Notes under the pieces: generated by a model
The model's database searches: none
The model's input: only the letters and a program-made list of their open reading frames with translations
Told to the model about the DNA's origin: nothing
Translations under genes and position numbers: made by a program
Shown: positions 3,526-41,427 of the stretch, piece by piece
Numbering within the stretch: position 1 is the first letter of the stretch
How the letters are laid out: the number at the start of each line of letters is the position of its first letter
Assembly: GCA_964291405.2 (NCBI GenBank)
Contig: OZ219926.1
Location: forward strand, 3,296,001 to 3,360,000
DNA: 64,000 bases
Origin: Thermodesulfobacteriota bacterium
Lineage (GTDB): Bacteria; Desulfobacterota; Binatia; Bin18
Reading direction: 5' to 3'

Positions 3526-4518
3526 ATGTCCCAAGCCTACCGTCTCTTTGGTGTCGAGCTGTCGCCCTACTCCTTAAAAGTCCGGGCCTATTTTCGCTAC
3601 AAGAATATTCCGCACGAATGGGTCGCCCGCGATTCCACCAACCAGGAAGAATTCGCACGTTATGCCAAGCTGCCCCTGGTTCCGCTCGTTGTCACCCCGG
3701 ACGGGCAGGGCATGCAGGATTCCACGCCCATCATGGAGCATTTTGAGGAGCTCCAGCCCGAGCCGTCTATTCATCCGAGCGATCCGACCCTGGCCTTCCT
3801 GTCCGCTCTGATCGAAGAGTATGGCGACGAATGGGGTAATAAGCAGATGTTCCACTATCGCTGGACGTATGAGCCTGACCAGAAATCCACGGCTGAGCGC
3901 ATTGCGCGCCTGACCCGGCCTGGGCTGAGTGAGGAGGAATATGCGGCGGCGACCGAGCAAATTCGGACGCGTATGGTCCCGCGCTTGTCTTTCGTCGGCT
4001 CAAGCGAGCGGACCCGGGAGCATATCGAGTCTTCCTTTGATCGTCTGTTGGCACTGCTCGAACCGCACCTCGCGCAACGCATGTATCTGTTCGGTGGCCG
4101 GCCCACGTTTAGCGATTTTGGTCTAGCCGCTCAGCTTCACCAATGCGCCACCGATCCCTCGGCCGGCACGATCATGCGGGCGGTTGCCCCGAACGTACTC
4201 TCCTGGGCGATGCAGATGCTGGACCCCAAGGATGAGGGCGCGTTAGAGACCTGGGCCGACCTGGCCCCAACGCTGAAGCCCATCCTCAAAGAAATCGGTC
4301 AGACCTTTCTGCCCTGGACCGCGGCCAACGCTCAGGCCCTGGCTGCCGGTCAAGAGGCATATTCGGTCATGCTGCGTGGCAAGGAGTACTCCCAGGACAC
4401 GCAGAAATACCACGCTCGGTCGTTTCGCGTTCTCCGGGAACGGTACGCGAAAGTCGAAGAGAAAGCGGCTTTGGACCCCATTCTGGAAGAGGCCGGTTGT
4501 TTACCGTGGTTACAATAA
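3526..4518 (+). CDS. Glutathione S-transferase family protein
   Basis: SPYSLKVRAYFRYK, VPLV, QDSTPI in the N-domain; YLFGGRPTFSDF in the C-domain; start may be 3511, 3517 or 3526. Confidence 0.85.
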   Translation: MSQAYRLFGVELSPYSLKVRAYFRYKNIPHEWVARDSTNQEEFARYAKLPLVPLVVTPDGQGMQDSTPIMEHFEELQPEPSIHPSDPTLAFLSALIEEYGDEWGNKQMFHYRWTYEPDQKSTAERIARLTRPGLSEEEYAAATEQIRTRMVPRLSFVGSSERTREHIESSFDRLLALLEPHLAQRMYLFGGRPTFSDFGLAAQLHQCATDPSAGTIMRAVAPNVLSWAMQMLDPKDEGALETWADLAPTLKPILKEIGQTFLPWTAANAQALAAGQEAYSVMLRGKEYSQDTQKYHARSFRVLRERYAKVEEKAALDPILEEAGCLPWLQ

Positions 4519-32185: not shown

Positions 32186-33070
32186 CTATAGCGGCTGCGG
32201 TTCCGAATGGATGGGAGGCTGTGCCGCAGGCGGGTCGGCCGGGCCATCCAGGTGGACATCCTTTTCGACGGTTTTTTCATCCGGGAGTTCCGTGCGTTCC
32301 AGCACGAAGGGTTTCCCCCGTCCCGTCGGGTTGGCCACAAACACATCATAGCTGCCGGTCTCCAGGACAAAGCGATGTTCCTGGCCGGGCTCACTGCGGG
32401 CAATCTCTTTTTGCGTCCCGGCGGCGTAAATGATGACCTGAGTCAGCGAACTGACATCTTTTCCGGCCAGCCGGGGATGGACCAGGAGCTCGCCACGTAC
32501 ACGCTCGCGCAGCGTCAGTTCCCGCAGTCCGCCCCGGAGGAGCTCAATATCGCGCCACCACTGGCTCTGGGGTGGGACGGCGACCTTGACATCGACCAAG
32601 CCCGGTTGCGCCAGGATGATCTCTCCGCTCAGGAACTCTCCCAGCAGTTCGTTGGACACGCCGTCATAGACCTCAACGCCGAGGCCGATATCCTGGCCCC
32701 TTTTATCCAGGACGTTGACCTGGAGGGCCGCGACTTCGCTGAGGATGACCGTACTGGTCCGACCGGACCGAACCAGCACGCGCTCGCGCGAGACCGTTCC
32801 GCCCAGAATGTCGAGTTCAACGCGATAGGACCCGGGCGGCAGCGAGGCGGGTGTGTTCAGGGGTGTTTGGGTGATGAGCGTATCGGGTGTGAGGCTATAG
32901 ATTCTGGCCGAGAGCCCACCCGGCTGAGCCTGCTCTCCCGGAGTCTGGATGAGCAGGTTGCCATGGGGTTCGGGCTCGGCCGCAGGCTGCGCGATACAAA
33001 CGTGGCTAAAGAGAAAAAAGCAGCTCAGCAGAACGGCCAGGAGCCACAGCGCTTGTTTATATCCAACCAT
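32186..33070 (-). CDS. Secreted hypothetical protein with three tandem beta-sandwich-like repeats
   Basis: Signal peptide; repeated LPPGSYRVEL / AQPGLVDVKV / LETGSYDVFV modules. Confidence 0.65.
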   Translation of the reverse strand: MVGYKQALWLLAVLLSCFFLFSHVCIAQPAAEPEPHGNLLIQTPGEQAQPGGLSARIYSLTPDTLITQTPLNTPASLPPGSYRVELDILGGTVSRERVLVRSGRTSTVILSEVAALQVNVLDKRGQDIGLGVEVYDGVSNELLGEFLSGEIILAQPGLVDVKVAVPPQSQWWRDIELLRGGLRELTLRERVRGELLVHPRLAGKDVSSLTQVIIYAAGTQKEIARSEPGQEHRFVLETGSYDVFVANPTGRGKPFVLERTELPDEKTVEKDVHLDGPADPPAAQPPIHSEPQPL

Positions 33071-33092
33071 ACGAGAAGGACGTCACCAGGGT

Positions 33093-33914
33093 CTATTTTT
33101 CCAGCGGGAGGTCCTCGCGGTTGCCCCATTCGGCCCAGGAGGCATCGTAGTTGCGCACCTTGTCAAAACCGAGTAGCCGAAGGGTGAACAATCCGTGCGC
33201 CGCACGGATACCACCCTGTCAATAGGTGACGACTTCACACTCGGGGCTGACCCCGACCTGCTCAAACATGGGGCGGAGTTCGTCCGCGGATTTGAACTTT
33301 TTTGTCTTGGGATCAACATAGTTGAGCCATTCGAGATGGACCGCGCCAGGAATCCGCCCGCCCCGCTTGGTGCCCCGGTTGTTCTCGCCGGTCCACTCCG
33401 CATCCGAGCGCACATCGAGCAGCACGGTATCTGCGGTAATGGCCCCCTGGACCTGCTCCCAGCGGGCGATCATGTCTTCATTGGCCTGGGGCGTAAAGGT
33501 CGCTTTGGCCGGACGGGACGCGATGTTTGTCACCGGCCGCCCTTCGGCCAGCCAGGCGTCCCAGCCGCCGTTCAATACTCTGACATTGGTATGGCCGTAA
33601 TAGTGCAGCGCCCACCAGAACCGGGTCGCGTACAGTCCGCTGAAGCCATCATAGGCGACCACCGGCGTATCATCCCCAATGCCCATTTCCCCCATTGTCT
33701 GAGCAAACTGGTCCGGGCCCATGATATGCGGCGCGCCTTCTTTTTCCTTGAAATAATGGTGGCCGCGCACGGGAATCGCCCCCGGAATATGGGCGCGGCG
33801 GTAGGCTTCGCGATTATCACAATCGACGACTCGCAGGTTGTCGTCCTGGAGATGCGCCGCGAGCCATTGGGTCTCTGCCAGCATGTCCGGTCGGGTATAG
33901 CCGTGGTCTGTCAT
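33093..33914 (-). CDS. Selenocysteine-containing two-domain sulfurtransferase (rhodanese/SseA-like)
   Basis: The ORF-track stop is a TGA (33219-33221) at the catalytic Cys position: [47 protein letters not shown], ending at TAG 33093-33095. Confidence 0.9.
33181..33217 (-). promoter_or_regulatory. Bacterial SECIS element
   Basis: mRNA reads UGA-C-AGGGUG-GU-AUCCGUGC-GGC-GCACGGAU-UGUU-CACCCU: two stems, G-led apical loop 17 nt after the UGA. Confidence 0.8.
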
Positions 33915-33926
33915 TATTCGCCTCCT

Positions 33927-34769
33927 TTACTGTCCCGAGTAGCGGGGCGTCCGTTTTTCCATAAACGCCCGCACCGCTTCTTTGGCATCCTGGGATCGAA
34001 TGCAGACCGCTTGGCTCTTGGCTTCCAGCAGGAGTCCGTCACGGACGGAAAGATATTGGCTGGCGTCAATCGCCCGCTTGGCAGCGCGCACGGCTAGCGG
34101 CGGTTGGCTGGCCAACTGGTCTGCCAGGTCCATCACGGTCGCCTCTAATGCCTCCTCGTCAACGAGCCGTTCGGCCAGACCGATACGATAGGCTTCTTCG
34201 GCCTCAATCTGCTGTGCGGTGAAGATGAGTTCTTTGGCCTTGCCGGTGCCGACCAGACGGGGCAGGCGTTGGGTTCCGCCCAGGTCGGGGATGAGGCCGT
34301 AGCGGTGCTCCAGCAAGCCCAGCCGGCTCCCGCGGGCGACCACCCGGATATCGCAGGCCAGCGCCATCTGCAGGCCCGCGCCTAAAGCATAGCCCCGGAC
34401 CGCGGCAATGGTCGGGTAGGGGGCTTCTTCAAGCCAGGTGAAGGCTTCCTGAAAACCCTGGATAATGGACACCATGGGGTCATCGTCGGCCACCACCTTG
34501 GGTATGGGCTCATGTTCGTGTCCGTTAAAGACCACGCCGCCAAAGGCAGAGGTGTCGATGCCGGTTGAGAAGGCGCGGCCTTCACCAATCACGACAAGCG
34601 CCCGTAGCTGGTTCTCGCGCGCATGTTCTTCGGTGGAAAGCGTGTCGCCGAGTTCCCGTAACGCCTGCCACATCTGGGGCGTCATGGCGTTCAGCTTTTC
34701 CGCCCGGTTGAGCCGCAGCCAACCTATATGTCCGACCTGTTCATAACGTACCGCTTCATCTTGCGTCAT
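33927..34769 (-). CDS. Enoyl-CoA hydratase/isomerase
   Basis: LNRAEKLNAM, AFSTGID, GYALGAGLQMALACDIR, PDLGGTQRLPRLVG. Confidence 0.92.
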   Translation of the reverse strand: MTQDEAVRYEQVGHIGWLRLNRAEKLNAMTPQMWQALRELGDTLSTEEHARENQLRALVVIGEGRAFSTGIDTSAFGGVVFNGHEHEPIPKVVADDDPMVSIIQGFQEAFTWLEEAPYPTIAAVRGYALGAGLQMALACDIRVVARGSRLGLLEHRYGLIPDLGGTQRLPRLVGTGKAKELIFTAQQIEAEEAYRIGLAERLVDEEALEATVMDLADQLASQPPLAVRAAKRAIDASQYLSVRDGLLLEAKSQAVCIRSQDAKEAVRAFMEKRTPRYSGQ

Positions 34770-34865: not shown

Positions 34866-35930
34866 TTACTGGTTTCTATACGGTCCGATAATCTCTCGGG
34901 CGAACTCCACGATACTTTCTTCCACTAGACTCCACGGAGGGGAGACAACAATCTGGGTGAGTCCGGCGGCTTCAAGCTGATGGAGGCGTTCGAGAATATC
35001 ATCGCGCGAGCCGGTCAGACTCATGGTCTGAATGGCCTCGGGGGTAATGAATTTCTCTTCGCCCGGATGCAGAAAGCGCGAGTGCGTGGCATGAATGTCT
35101 TCCCAGCGGTCATCCAGATAGCGCTGGTACTCTGATGTCAGGAAAGGCTGTAAAAAAGGTGGCACCGTTTTGCCCTGTTTGGCGACTTCATAGGCATAGT
35201 GCAGGGCCACCGCAATGCGCGGGCCGACCCGCGACAGCACGCGCGGACTGTTCACCGCCTCGCCGGGTTGCAGCACACAGGAGACGCCGAGTGTGACCAC
35301 GCTGAAGTCGGAGGGTTTCCCACCGTTTCGGCCCTCCCAGCCCTGTGCGACTGCCGTCAGATTGCGGGTGAGCGACTCGGGCGAGAGCAGGCTCAGGGTC
35401 AACAGGCCGTCGCCTAGCTCACCGGCCAGGGCCTGGGCCTTGGGATGCGAGGCCGCCAGATAGATGGGGATGCGCTCGCGCGTATTAATATAGCCGTGCT
35501 CGACATCCATGAACCGAATTCGGCTCTGCCGTCCACGCTCGTGATAGGGGACAGTCTCACCTCGGAGCAGGCCCTGGCAGACCTCGACCGCGTGCCGGAA
35601 CTCCGCAAGCGAGACCGGCGGCATATCCATGGTCCGCCAAGCCGTATGGCCGGTGCCCAGACCGAGGATCACCCGGCCGGGCGCAAGCTGATTGATGGTG
35701 GCAATCGAGTGCGCAATGACAGGCGGAATGCGCGTCCCGACAATGGTGACGCCGGTCCCGAGGCGGATTGTTTTTGTATACGTGGCAGCCAGGGTCATGC
35801 AGGCATACACGTCCGAGGTGAGCATCTGCGAATCTACGAACCAGGCATGAGTAAACCCCATCTGCTCGGCCAGCAGGGCGTGTTTCCATCCGTTATGAAT
35901 ATGTGACTGAAAGCCAACTCCGAAGTCCAT
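34866..35930 (-). CDS. LLM-class flavin-dependent oxidoreductase
   Basis: GFTHAWFVDSQM, IRLGTGVT, APGRVILGLGTG, PIYLAA. Confidence 0.9.
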   Translation of the reverse strand: MDFGVGFQSHIHNGWKHALLAEQMGFTHAWFVDSQMLTSDVYACMTLAATYTKTIRLGTGVTIVGTRIPPVIAHSIATINQLAPGRVILGLGTGHTAWRTMDMPPVSLAEFRHAVEVCQGLLRGETVPYHERGRQSRIRFMDVEHGYINTRERIPIYLAASHPKAQALAGELGDGLLTLSLLSPESLTRNLTAVAQGWEGRNGGKPSDFSVVTLGVSCVLQPGEAVNSPRVLSRVGPRIAVALHYAYEVAKQGKTVPPFLQPFLTSEYQRYLDDRWEDIHATHSRFLHPGEEKFITPEAIQTMSLTGSRDDILERLHQLEAAGLTQIVVSPPWSLVEESIVEFAREIIGPYRNQ

Positions 35931-37572: not shown

Positions 37573-40059
37573 ATGACAGGAGCGACTATGCCGACGGTTT
37601 CACAAACTGCGTCTTTGCTTGCTCTCTTCTTGTGTGTCGCCACCTGTCTCTCGCCGTCCCTAGGTCGTACCGCGGTCGTGCCTCAGACAAGTGTTCAGGA
37701 GGATGGAATGGAAACACTGCGCCTCTCCGGTCTCCACGAGCCGGTCGAAATCCTGACCGACCGCTGGGGTATTGCCCACATCTATGCCAAGAACCAGCAT
37801 GACCTGTTTTTTGCCCAAGGCTATAACGCGGCCCGCGACCGCCTGTTTCAGCTTGAGATCTGGCGCCGGCGCGTCACCGGCACGATGGCCGAGATTCAAG
37901 GTCCCAAAGCCCTGAACCGCGACATCGGTACCCGGCTGCTGCGTTTTCGTGGCGATCTGGATCAGGAGTGTCAGTACTATCACCCGGATGGGAAAGAGAT
38001 CATCACCGCCTTTGTCCAGGGTATTAACGCCTATATTCAGCAGACCCGGGAACGGCCGGACCTGTTGCCCCTTGAGTTCGGTCTGCTGGGCATTACCCCC
38101 CAAGCCTGGACCCTGGACATCGTGCTGGCACGTATCGGTGGAATCTTTCTGAACCTGGAAACCGAGGTTCTGATCGCCCAGGCGCTGCAAACCATGCAGC
38201 CCGAAGCGATCCGGGCGATGCTCCACTTGCACCCCGGAACGCCCGACCTGACCGCAGCCGAAGGACTGGATGTGGCGACCATTCCCGGCGATGTCCTCAA
38301 GTATTATCAAGCCGCGCGCGAAGCGGTCGTCTTTGCGCCCGAAGACGTTGTTGATCCGCGGAATCGTGCCACAGAAACCGCTGACGCAGTGACTCAGTCC
38401 GCTACCCCGGCCTTTACCGGGAAGAGCGTGTCACAAGACGAGGGCAGTAATAATTGGGTGGTGAACGGCACCAAAACGCTCTCTCGGCAGCCGCTCATGG
38501 TCAACGACCCGCACCGTGCGATTACCGCGCCATCGCTGCGTTACTGGGTACATCTGGTCGCGCCCGGCTGGAACGTGATCGGCGGTGGCGAGCCCCACCT
38601 GCCCGGTGTTTCTATCGGACATAACGAGCAGGGGGCCTGGGGGCTGACGATTTTCCCGACCGACTCCGAAGACCTGTATGTATATAAGACCAACCCGGAC
38701 AACCCACATCAGTATTGGTACCGGGGGGAATGGGAGGATATGCGGGTTCTCCACGAGACGATCCCGGTGAAAGGCCAGGACGCCGCCGCAGTCGAACTGA
38801 AATACACCCGACACGGTCCTATCCTGGCCGAAGACCCGGAGCGGCACCTGGCTTTTGGGCTGCGGGCCGCCTGGCTCGATATCGGTGGGGTGCCGTATTT
38901 GGCCAGCCTGCGGATGGACCAGGCCAAAACCTGGCAAGAGTTCCGTGAGGCGTGCGCATATTCCCGCGCCCCGTCAGAGAACATGGTCTGGGCGGACAGA
39001 CAGGGTAATATCGGCTGGCAGGCGGTCGGTGTCGTGCCGCTCCGGCCCAACTGGAACGGTCTGGTACCCGTGCCGGGGGACGGACGCTTTGAGTGGGATG
39101 GCTATCTGCCGATTCGCGAGCTGCCGCACGTCCTGAATCCCTCGGAGGGGTTTATCGCAACGGCAAACCAGGAGAACCTCCCGCCCAGCTACCCCTATCC
39201 GATCAGCTATTACTGGCTGGAGCCCTACCGGTTTGCCCGGATTGAGGAAGTCCTGGCCGCAGGTAGAAACCTGACGGCCCGAGAGATGATGCAACTCCAA
39301 AGCGATGAATACTCGATTCCCGCGCGTTTGCTGGTGCCGTTTCTGCAGGCCTTGGACAAGGATTGGGCGGCAGAAGACCCGCTCGTCCAGGCTGCGCTCA
39401 ACACGCTGCACGCCTGGGACTTCGTGCTGGACAAGGACTCCGTTGCCGCCGGGATCTATGCGGCCTGGCAGCGCCAGTTGTGGGAGCAATTCCGGAACAC
39501 GCACGTCCCAGCCGCTCTCCAGGAATCATTTGCGAGTATTGTTGTCACCCCGCTCATCAACAGCCTCCTTGCTCCTGATGGCAGCTACGGTCCTGATCCA
39601 CTCGCCGGACGAGACCAATTCATACGTGAGAGTTTTAAGGCCGCCGTCCGCTCCCTCGTCACCCGCTTCGGCCCGGATATAAACAATTGGACCTATGGCC
39701 AAACCGCCTATCACCACATCGTCATCAAACACATGCTGAGTGACGCGGTGAACGCCGAACTCCGAGCCCAACTCGACGTTGGTCCCATTCCGCGTGGCGG
39801 GGATAGCTTTACGGTCAATAATACCGGCAGCGAGGACATGCAGACCGTGGGGGCTTCTTTTCGGCTGATTGCCGACCCCAGTAACTGGGACCGGTCATTA
39901 GGTATCAATACGCCTGGACAGGCAGGCGATCCAGCCCAGGCGCATTATCGCGATCTGTCTGGGCTGTGGGCCGAGGGGCAGTATTTCCCCGTTTTGTATT
40001 CTCGAGACAAGATTTTGACGGTAACGGAACACAAGACGCTACTCCAACCGGAGCCATAA
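37573..40059 (+). CDS. Penicillin acylase family (Ntn hydrolase), exported
   Basis: DRWGIAHIYA, AQGYNAARDRLFQLE, autoprocessing site G/SNNW, NDPH; signal peptide; start 37573 or 37588. Confidence 0.93.
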   Translation: MTGATMPTVSQTASLLALFLCVATCLSPSLGRTAVVPQTSVQEDGMETLRLSGLHEPVEILTDRWGIAHIYAKNQHDLFFAQGYNAARDRLFQLEIWRRRVTGTMAEIQGPKALNRDIGTRLLRFRGDLDQECQYYHPDGKEIITAFVQGINAYIQQTRERPDLLPLEFGLLGITPQAWTLDIVLARIGGIFLNLETEVLIAQALQTMQPEAIRAMLHLHPGTPDLTAAEGLDVATIPGDVLKYYQAAREAVVFAPEDVVDPRNRATETADAVTQSATPAFTGKSVSQDEGSNNWVVNGTKTLSRQPLMVNDPHRAITAPSLRYWVHLVAPGWNVIGGGEPHLPGVSIGHNEQGAWGLTIFPTDSEDLYVYKTNPDNPHQYWYRGEWEDMRVLHETIPVKGQDAAAVELKYTRHGPILAEDPERHLAFGLRAAWLDIGGVPYLASLRMDQAKTWQEFREACAYSRAPSENMVWADRQGNIGWQAVGVVPLRPNWNGLVPVPGDGRFEWDGYLPIRELPHVLNPSEGFIATANQENLPPSYPYPISYYWLEPYRFARIEEVLAAGRNLTAREMMQLQSDEYSIPARLLVPFLQALDKDWAAEDPLVQAALNTLHAWDFVLDKDSVAAGIYAAWQRQLWEQFRNTHVPAALQESFASIVVTPLINSLLAPDGSYGPDPLAGRDQFIRESFKAAVRSLVTRFGPDINNWTYGQTAYHHIVIKHMLSDAVNAELRAQLDVGPIPRGGDSFTVNNTGSEDMQTVGASFRLIADPSNWDRSLGINTPGQAGDPAQAHYRDLSGLWAEGQYFPVLYSRDKILTVTEHKTLLQPEP

Positions 40060-40158
40060 ATCGGGCGACGGTATTCTCACCCGTCAACACAATGCCGTGC
40101 CGGCTTGTCGGGTTTATGTGTTCCTTGGTATGTTTGGCCCGTATTCAGGAGGGACACG

Positions 40159-41427
40159 ATGTCAGCACTAGATTCTCAAGCAGCATCTCCACGTAACGAA
40201 TGGCGCAAGCAGACCCCGGGTCATGCCGACTGGGCGCGGACCGCGCATGCTGGTGACCCGCATAAATACTATATGGTTTCGGTCGATACGCACGGGATCG
40301 AACCGAACGATTATCTGGAAAAGCGCATTGAGAAAAAATATCTCCATCGCATTCCGCGTATGAAGATTGACGAGGACGGCGCGCAGTGGACGATCTGCGA
40401 GGGCATGAAGCCCGTGCTGGTCAAACCGGGCCGCAATTATGAAAAACACCTCCCGGCGCTGGAGTCGTTTGAAGATATCGACATGTTTCAGCCCTACTCA
40501 AAACGCTTTGAGGCCGAAGATGTGCGCCGTAACCATGCCGGCATCGATATCACACAGCGTCTGGCCGACGCGGATGCGGATGGCATTGATGCCGAGATTA
40601 TTTTCCCGAATAAAGGCCTGCTGGCCTTTGGCACGCCTGACCCGGTTTTCCAGGGGGCGATGTTCCGCGCCTGGAACCGCTGGGCGCTTGAGACTTTTGG
40701 CGATCACTGGGCTCGTTTCATGCCCATGGCCATGATTGCAACCGGCGATCTTGAAGGAGCCATGGCCGAAGTGCGGTGGGCTACGGAGCATGGCTTCAAG
40801 GGACTCACCATGCCGAATAAGCCCATCTTTGGTCCGCTCAAAGAGGGCGAACTGCAATACAACGACAAATCGTTTGAGCCCCTCTGGTCGCTGATCGAAG
40901 AAGTGGACCTGCCCATGACCTTCCACGTCTCGACCGGACGCGACCCGCGCGCGGTCGGGGGCAATGGCGGGGCGCTGATTAACTATGTTTCGCACTCGAT
41001 GTCGACCGTCATGGACCCGCTCGTGCACCTGATCTCCTCAGGCGTGTTTGAGCGCCATCCTACCCTTAAAGCCGGCTCTATTGAAGGCGGCATCGGCTGG
41101 GTGCCCTGGATGGTCGAGACCCTCGACTACGCCCATCAAGTCCACCATATGTGGGTGCGTCCGGTCCTGCCCGAACCGCCCAGCTTTTATTATCGGCGTA
41201 ACTGTTTCTCGGCCTTCATGAATGACCGCTCCACACTGCTCCTGGCCGAAGAGTTGAACCTGGTCGAAAATTTCATGTGGTCGAATGACTATCCACACCA
41301 CGAAGGTAGTTGGCCGTACTCGGCCGCCAGCATTGAGCGCCAGATGGATACCTTGTCGGAAGCAAGCCGCGAGAAGATTCTCGGTCTGAACGCTGCCCGT
41401 GTCTTCAAACTGGAAGTGCCAGAGTAA
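40159..41427 (+). CDS. Amidohydrolase_2 family protein
   Basis: SVDTHGIEP, DGIDAEIIFP, FHVSTG, EGGIGWVP, MWSNDYPHHEG. Confidence 0.88.
   Translation: MSALDSQAASPRNEWRKQTPGHADWARTAHAGDPHKYYMVSVDTHGIEPNDYLEKRIEKKYLHRIPRMKIDEDGAQWTICEGMKPVLVKPGRNYEKHLPALESFEDIDMFQPYSKRFEAEDVRRNHAGIDITQRLADADADGIDAEIIFPNKGLLAFGTPDPVFQGAMFRAWNRWALETFGDHWARFMPMAMIATGDLEGAMAEVRWATEHGFKGLTMPNKPIFGPLKEGELQYNDKSFEPLWSLIEEVDLPMTFHVSTGRDPRAVGGNGGALINYVSHSMSTVMDPLVHLISSGVFERHPTLKAGSIEGGIGWVPWMVETLDYAHQVHHMWVRPVLPEPPSFYYRRNCFSAFMNDRSTLLLAEELNLVENFMWSNDYPHHEGSWPYSAASIERQMDTLSEASREKILGLNAARVFKLEVPE

Follow-up and report, generated by a model that had tools for sequence, protein, structure and literature searches.

Is the in-frame UGA that appears to end a sulfurtransferase gene of a Binatia bacterium a stop codon, or is it read as selenocysteine (Sec)? 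The gene lies on the reverse strand of a 64,000-nucleotide stretch of DNA (the window) from contig OZ219926.1 of assembly GCA_964291405.2, positions 3,296,001 to 3,360,000 (Thermodesulfobacteriota bacterium; GTDB lineage Bacteria; Desulfobacterota; Binatia; Bin18), and all coordinates given without a locus handle are those of the window. A preliminary description, made from the letters of the window, had proposed a hidden selenoprotein, namely a sulfurtransferase with UGA at the catalytic site and a selenocysteine insertion sequence (SECIS) element within the gene. The analysis reported here supports this proposal, which we now regard as very probably correct.

An in-frame TGA in the catalytic-cysteine column

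The following features define the gene.

33093..33914, reverse strand: putative Sec rhodanese, complete gene, 273 residues with U232 (translation with TGA read as U; PF00581; matches in the PDB)
33921..33926, reverse strand: putative ribosome-binding site AGGAGG, 6 nt 5′ of the ATG at 33914..33912 (read from the sequence)
33219..33221, reverse strand: in-frame TGA, predicted Sec codon in the catalytic-cysteine column, loop U-Q-G-G-I-R-A (translation; alignments of homologs)
33093..33095, reverse strand: true stop TAG (TAG or TAA at the same place in 26/26 orthologous loci)

The conventional open reading frame (33219..33914, reverse strand) encodes 231 amino acids with the C-terminus ...PECEVVTY and closes with the TGA at 33221..33219. 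When this codon was translated as U, residue U232 was followed by 41 sense codons (QGGIRAAH...LPLEK) and then by the TAG at 33095..33093, which bears out the initial reading that the frame stays open for 41 codons past EVVTY-TGA. The full translation matched the Pfam family PF00581 (Rhodanese) in two stretches, with 130.5 bits against a gathering cut-off of 22.2, and its sequence matches in the PDB were to rhodanese, with 1uar_A (E 1.1e-48) and 3hzu_A covering residues 5-273. In the alignments with these PDB sequences, U232 falls on the cysteine of the CRIAERS (1uar) and CRIGERS (3hzu) loops, which is the catalytic cysteine. Homologs likewise carry a cysteine in the same column (TY-C-QGGIRAA), and the placement of the UGA at the catalytic site is thereby borne out. 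The rhodanese did not reach the cut-off of NF041203 (rhodanese-related form 3, CxU), scoring 28 against 115 bits. Judged from its sequence, the gene very probably encodes a cytoplasmic two-domain rhodanese of the thiosulfate/persulfide sulfurtransferase type, whose catalytic residue is predicted to be Sec.

Conservation of the TGA and of the downstream frame

Orthologs were sought in 41 genomes, comprising the window's own, 24 of the same genus, one of the same order and 15 of the same class. An ortholog (68-100% identity) was present in 26 of them, each with exactly one in-frame TGA, and paralogs of about 40% identity have no in-frame stop; two of them, both Cys forms, lie in the window's own genome. 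The column of the TGA is the same in all 26 orthologous loci, the next 41 codons are open, and the stop after them is TAG in 22 loci and TAA in 4. The peptide 3′ of the TGA is nearly invariant across these loci. Variable DNA columns within the 41 codons number 46, of which 32 are third, 9 first and 5 second positions, and this excess of third positions is the mark of a translated frame under purifying selection. Had the close relatives carried TGC or TGT with no hairpin, the selenoprotein proposal would have suffered; instead, TGA and the hairpin described below occur in 26/26 orthologs, and Cys appears in more distant homologs.

A wider set was obtained by gathering active-site regions from 79 genome loci and 79 metagenome loci in addition to the window; loci that were too short, or whose active-site motif was unmatched by the search pattern, are uncounted. 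This set contains 81 distinct sequences with TGA, 25 with TGC and 2 with TGT. Among the best 120 protein clusters, 50 are full length with Cys in the TGA column (TY-C-QGGIRAA and variants), and the remaining 70 are gene calls of about 231 amino acids that end in ...TY just before this column. The expectation that such a gene would be annotated as truncated therefore proved right. With 70 of these 120 clusters ending at the UGA, the genomes of Binatia and Chloroflexota are under-annotated for selenoproteins, and the main value of the present result is a practical one, in that public sets record a truncated sulfurtransferase of 231 residues and miss its catalytic residue.

The accuracy of the letters at the TGA was examined in contigs from other sequencing runs. 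The labelled runs that contain this stretch mostly bear the label sponge metagenome. The TGA is bridged by a DNA contig of run X3 (33050-33452) and by an RNA-library contig of run X15 (33099-33418, 0 differences), and the contigs of four runs show no alternative letter at positions 33219-33221. The bridging contigs thus agree at the very place where a sequencing error had been considered in the preliminary description. Parts of the gene that are uncovered in the RNA-library runs X15 and X16 are uninformative on expression.

A conserved hairpin directly 3′ of the TGA

Two nested features describe the RNA element that follows the TGA.

33181..33217, reverse strand: predicted bacterial SECIS element, with a lower stem (33217-33211 paired with 33187-33181), an upper stem and a loop (folds, -21.8 kcal/mol)
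33191..33209, reverse strand: core SECIS hairpin, with an 8-bp upper stem (7 pairs conserved) and the loop GGC at 33201-33199 (folding; conservation)

The minimum-energy fold of 76 nt around the TGA contains two stems, and the 7-bp lower stem begins 1 nt after the UGA, as had been read by eye from the sequence. The hairpin exceeds chance: the 76-nt fold has an energy of -28.8 kcal/mol against -20.5 +/- 2.9 for shuffled sequences (z -2.9), and 3/200 shuffles fold as well. The 19-nt hairpin alone reaches -11.0 kcal/mol and the two-stem element -21.8 kcal/mol. The hairpin starts 9-10 nt 3′ of the UGA, with a distance of 17 nt from the UGA to the apical loop, and its core is presumed to be the binding site of SelB. 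For comparison we used the bSECISearch model of Zhang and Gladyshev as it is summarised in PMC13188914. According to the legend of Figure 2 of that article, the bacterial SECIS consensus has a loop of 3-9 nt with a G at position 1, position 2 or both, an upper stem of 4-16 bp, a UGA-loop spacing of 16-37 nt and an energy of -7.5 kcal/mol or lower. The present hairpin agrees with this consensus throughout, with a loop of 3 nt that starts with GG, a stem of 7-8 bp, a spacing of 17 nt and an energy of -11.0 kcal/mol.

The core stem of 7 bp is complete in 74 of the 81 distinct TGA sequences; six pairs are kept in five others, five in one and three in the divergent locus L111, which is discussed below. 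The apical loop is GGC in 77 of these sequences, GTC in two, GGG in one and TGC in one. When the comparison was restricted to sequences encoding the same peptide (Q-x-G-x-R-A-A-H), all 7 pairs were found in 73/79 TGA forms, and among the Cys forms the five with TGC keep 3-4 of the 7 pairs and the single one with TGT (L149) keeps 6. Synonymous sites tell the same story across 75 Sec sequences. In each of the six hairpin codons the third position is 93-100% fixed (CGT in 75/75, GCG in 74/75 and 75/75, CAC in 74/75, GGA in 70/75 and ATC in 71/75), and the four-fold sites just before and after them use all four bases. Compensatory double changes were seen at one pair of the upper stem, C-G to A-U in L102 and C-G to G-C in L104, and these are the only two such changes.

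The prototype of bacterial SECIS elements is that of Escherichia coli fdhF. The present element conforms to the bacterial consensus in being an in-gene stem-loop just 3′ of the UGA with a 3-nt loop that starts with GG. Its sequence is unrelated to the E. coli elements, and a bulged U of the fdhF type is not evident. It is also unusually invariant across the Binatia and Chloroflexota forms.

The sequencing runs display one peculiarity at this place. Summed contig depth jumps over positions 33187-33236 in all four runs (in run X2 up to 2433 against about 97), and many short contigs begin or stop there. The rise is likely due to invariant hairpin words that are common to many strains or species in the samples.

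Selenocysteine machinery of the genome

The genome that bears the Sec rhodanese (4.95 Mb in 3 contigs, 97.5% complete) contains selA, selB and selD, all scoring over curated cut-offs (598 bits against 268, 393 against 242 and 308 against 125, respectively). Its tRNA-Sec scores 69 bits against a gathering score of 47 and was reported by ARAGORN as tRNA-SeC with the anticodon TCA. The earlier assumption that the organism decodes Sec is supported by the presence of these four components in the same genome. In addition, selA exceeds its cut-off in 37/41 related genomes. As read from these genes, the data show Binatia, including strains in the runs labelled sponge metagenome, to have kept a Sec system, predicted to be functional, and a predicted Sec-dependent sulfurtransferase.

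Several details of this machinery were recorded along the way. About 240 nt separate selA from the neighbouring tRNA-Sec gene, which is on the opposite strand (G000:C3:2982582-2984246), and the contig also carries selB and selD at other places. SelD is a fusion of 755 residues in which an N-terminal pyridine nucleotide-disulphide oxidoreductase domain (PF07992, 95 bits) precedes the AIRS and AIRS_C domains (L010:262-2529; G000:C3 at about 38325-40592), and its active-site stretch C-G-G-C-G-S-K contains Cys, not Sec. A scan of L210 and L211 for in-frame TGA codons, a crude one that listed many spurious frames, also showed an in-frame TGA followed by a hairpin at two further places, C-F-Y-U-T and C-M-H-U (L210, 129 and 4569, plus strand; G000:C3 at about 1342628 and 1347068). 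The hairpins at these two TGAs differ in sequence from that of the rhodanese gene.

Proposed decoding and competing explanations

In the mechanism that we propose, translation would begin at the ATG at 33914, and the UGA at codon 232 would not be read as a stop. SelB with GTP and Sec-tRNA(Sec) would bind the hairpin (7-8 bp, loop GGC) located 9-10 nt 3′ of the UGA, and the hairpin-bound SelB would deliver selenocysteine to the ribosome, placing Sec at residue 232 as the first residue of the loop U-Q-G-G-I-R-A. The ribosome would then continue for 41 codons to the TAG and so produce the rest of the active-site loop together with the strand and the helix that end the catalytic domain. Catalysis presumably follows a double-displacement course, in which a sulfane sulfur (or selenium) would be transferred onto the selenolate to give an Se-S(Se) intermediate and from there to an acceptor; by analogy, we infer catalysis through such an Se-S intermediate. 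Actual Sec insertion, the binding of SelB and the substrates of the enzyme are likewise predictions of this scheme.

Several results weigh against this interpretation or withhold support from it. The hairpin shows no covariation above shuffled alignments: across the 75 distinct Sec sequences, the stem positions are paired in 87.4% of cases against 87.0 +/- 0.2, a value that 37/500 shuffles reach, and the covariation score is 0.088 against 0.092 in shuffles. The hairpin is held by invariance, which is partly forced by the conserved peptide. Because the pair count does not rise above that of shuffles, the support for the element consists of the frozen synonymous sites and the loss of pairs in Cys forms, not of covariation. 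Its lower stem is mismatched in 14-31 of the 75 sequences at four pairs and is 85.1% paired overall. No Rfam SECIS family was found in 33050-33350 at E <= 10, where the only matches were sR7 (E 1.5) and ALIL (E 5) on the plus strand, at chance level. Among the 26 genomes with a Sec ortholog, selA was not found in two (G003, 97% complete, and G009, 65% complete). The RNA-library contig of run X15 is no proof of transcription, because RNA libraries can contain DNA. Finally, the cut-off of NF008557, the equivalog model of the 3-mercaptopyruvate sulfurtransferase SseA, was not reached (147.1 against 250 bits), and the protein is therefore not filed as SseA or 3-mercaptopyruvate sulfurtransferase.

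Against decoding as Sec stand three other explanations, to which we leave a small share of the probability even when they are taken together. The one that survives best, itself improbable, holds that the UGA acts mostly as a stop, so that the main product would be a protein of 231 residues without the catalytic loop, and read-through would be minor or dependent on selenium. In its favor, Sec insertion in bacteria is known to compete with release factor 2. The 231-residue form, however, would break off where the active-site loop begins and would lack the catalytic residue and the last 41 residues. Strong selection acts on these 41 codons and on the hairpin, and what is selected is therefore the full-length product.

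We consider it still less probable that the UGA is decoded as Cys, Trp, Gly or another amino acid through suppression or an altered code. This explanation can draw on the Cys found in the same column of homologs, so that an enzyme with Cys at this position would also be active. However, 11 of the window's 55 open frames with 250 or more codons close with TGA (a crude count, as not all of these frames are genes), so that TGA is an ordinary stop and has not been reassigned; moreover, a complete Sec system is present, and only TGA forms conserve the hairpin that agrees with the SECIS model. A nonsense mutation or an error of sequencing or assembly that leaves a pseudogene has hardly any probability left. 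Gene callers do take the TGA as a stop and thereby yield the truncated predictions of about 231 amino acids in 70/120 best clusters, but the TGA recurs in 26/26 orthologs and in 81 distinct sequences, purifying selection acts on the open frame downstream, the codon is unaltered in the independent contigs that bridge it, and a divergence of 68-95% excludes one systematic error common to all assemblies. Insertion of Sec at the UGA thus remains the explanation that we favor.

Comparison with known selenoproteins and rhodaneses

The rhodanese-related sulfurtransferase COG2897 is one of the 15 selenoprotein families newly reported from the Sargasso Sea. Table 1 of PMC1088965 gives 3 unique sequences for it, and Figure 3 of the same article shows its predicted SECIS element (Zhang, Fomenko, Gladyshev 2005). 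On the evidence of that table, the preliminary description was correct in stating that Sec forms of this family had been reported before. The COG2897 Sec rhodanese is listed again in the GOS survey (PMC2398784). In the nomenclature of a 2026 review, the COG2897 rhodanese selenoprotein is "form 4" with the motif UxxG (PMC13188914), and a 2022 review uses "form 2" for the single-domain COG0607 type (PMC9312934).

The present protein resembles the COG2897 Sec family in its two-domain SseA/COG2897 architecture, in having the predicted Sec in the catalytic-cysteine column within a U-x-x-G motif (here U-Q-G-G), in the SECIS element directly downstream with a G in a small apical loop, and in its many Cys homologs. 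With two domains and U-Q-G-G it fits "form 4", an assignment made by motif and architecture and not by alignment to a representative sequence. It differs in its source, as the present member comes from Candidatus Binatia and from runs labelled sponge metagenome. The Sec rhodanese is accordingly a member of a selenoprotein family known since 2005, with a mechanism that is likewise known, and it represents no new kind of biology. We know of no published description of a Sec rhodanese in Binatia from a search on "Binat" and "selenocysteine" in which most candidates were judged by title or abstract; in the Binatota paper, selenocysteine appears in the reference list only (PMC9999580).

Among solved structures, the rhodaneses of Thermus thermophilus (1UAR), Mycobacterium tuberculosis (SseA, 3HZU) and Azotobacter vinelandii (RhdA, 1E0C) share the fold, the length and the place of the catalytic residue, and their alignments cover residues 5-273 with E values of 1.1e-48 to 2.5e-39. 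These enzymes have Cys where Sec is predicted here, and the loop that follows is Q-G-G-I-R-A in the present protein against R-I-A-E-R-S in 1UAR and R-I-G-E-R-S in 3HZU. Since the loop is unlike those of the solved Cys rhodaneses, substrate preference cannot be carried over from them.

Neighbouring genes

Three genes on the same strand surround the rhodanese gene.

32186..33070, reverse strand: exported-type protein of 294 amino acids with a signal-peptide-like N-terminus, 22 nt 3′ of the rhodanese stop (read from the sequence)
33927..34769, reverse strand: enoyl-CoA hydratase/isomerase family, its stop 12 nt before the rhodanese start (PF00378, 163.4 bits)
34866..35930, reverse strand: luciferase-like monooxygenase family, upstream (PF00296, 136.8 bits)

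The operon context given in the preliminary description holds for the window, where all three genes are present, but only in part beyond it. Across 40 genome loci of the Binatia type, the 294-amino-acid protein is the most constant neighbour (31/40), followed by the luciferase-like gene (29/40) and the enoyl-CoA hydratase gene (21/40), the last being confined to close relatives; in 5/40 loci the upstream sequence was too short to judge. Where at least 300 nt of downstream sequence were available, the gene for the 294-amino-acid protein also followed the rhodanese gene in 28/41 metagenome loci, including the Cys form L149, and was not found in any locus of the Chloroflexota type. Nothing ties these neighbours to selenium.

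The 294-amino-acid protein had no match in Pfam or NCBIfam, and a PDB profile search gave nothing below E 0.6. Its family is narrow: of 1.84 billion cluster representatives, 9 match at E <= 1e-30 and 30 at E <= 1e-10. The AlphaFold model is all-beta with three beta-sandwich domains (mean predicted local distance difference test score, pLDDT, 83.2). A Foldseek search with this model returned only generic tandem Ig/CnaB-like matches (template modelling score, TM, 0.13-0.31), and because these matches are generic and the PDB profile search was empty, they offer no clue to function. An alignment of the family, from which the row L069 was left out as it contains stop codons, shows invariant PPQ-QWWR and EHRF motifs and no invariant Cys. 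The protein is linked to the rhodanese by position only. It is a modest addition to the present findings and the one unexplained item worth keeping.

Evolution of the Sec and Cys forms

Two trees were calculated. The first, a FastTree tree of 113 rows, omitted L111 and one further row, and the second, a quick IQ-TREE tree of 106 rows, additionally omitted seven long-branch Cys rows as well as the row already missing from the first. In the FastTree tree, the window falls in a well-supported clade of 69 rows made up of 68 Sec forms and one nested Cys form (L149, TGT). No starred set contains L149 in the IQ-TREE tree, but every row nearest to it by path is a Sec form. In the FastTree tree, most Chloroflexota and Dehalococcoidia forms are Sec as well, and four Cys forms make up a clade nested among them. 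Both trees require at least 4 changes between Sec and Cys. The directions of these changes are suggestions only, because the trees are quick ones and their root is untested. With 81 distinct TGA sequences, the group is large enough to exemplify how Sec is retained over long periods and occasionally reverts to Cys.

In locus L149 (metagenome contig, 2197-2244), which has a TGT codon, 6/7 stem pairs remain, one of them G-U, and the gene downstream is again that of the exported-type protein. The locus looks as though it reverted from Sec to Cys recently and its SECIS element is now decaying; the six retained pairs fit such an event.

It is conceivable, if rather unlikely, that in the Binatia-type clade the predicted Sec rhodanese forms the cytoplasmic half of a conserved two-gene cassette whose other half is the lineage-restricted exported protein. 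If so, the pair would serve an undescribed route of sulfur or selenium handling, for example in supply or detoxification across the envelope, and the long retention of Sec (68/69 rows of one well-supported clade) would reflect a reaction that is poorly done by Cys.

Locus L111, from a Planctomycetota metagenome-assembled genome (MAG; TGA at 3667-3669), was considered as a false match of the search pattern, and this was rejected, as translation puts its TGA in the catalytic column. It encodes a 36%-identical homolog with the loop U-Q-S-G-G-R-S, and it has no hairpin of the Binatia type and no significant one at all (z -0.46). It may be a Sec form of independent origin that uses a different SECIS element; it was counted among the 81 TGA sequences and left out of the Sec alignment as well as the trees. 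Finally, six MAG records titled "uncultured Enterobacteriaceae bacterium" (L071, L072, L075, L083, L084 and L087) carry Sec rhodaneses that fall inside the Binatia clade and have Binatia-type neighbours, and their label looks wrong.

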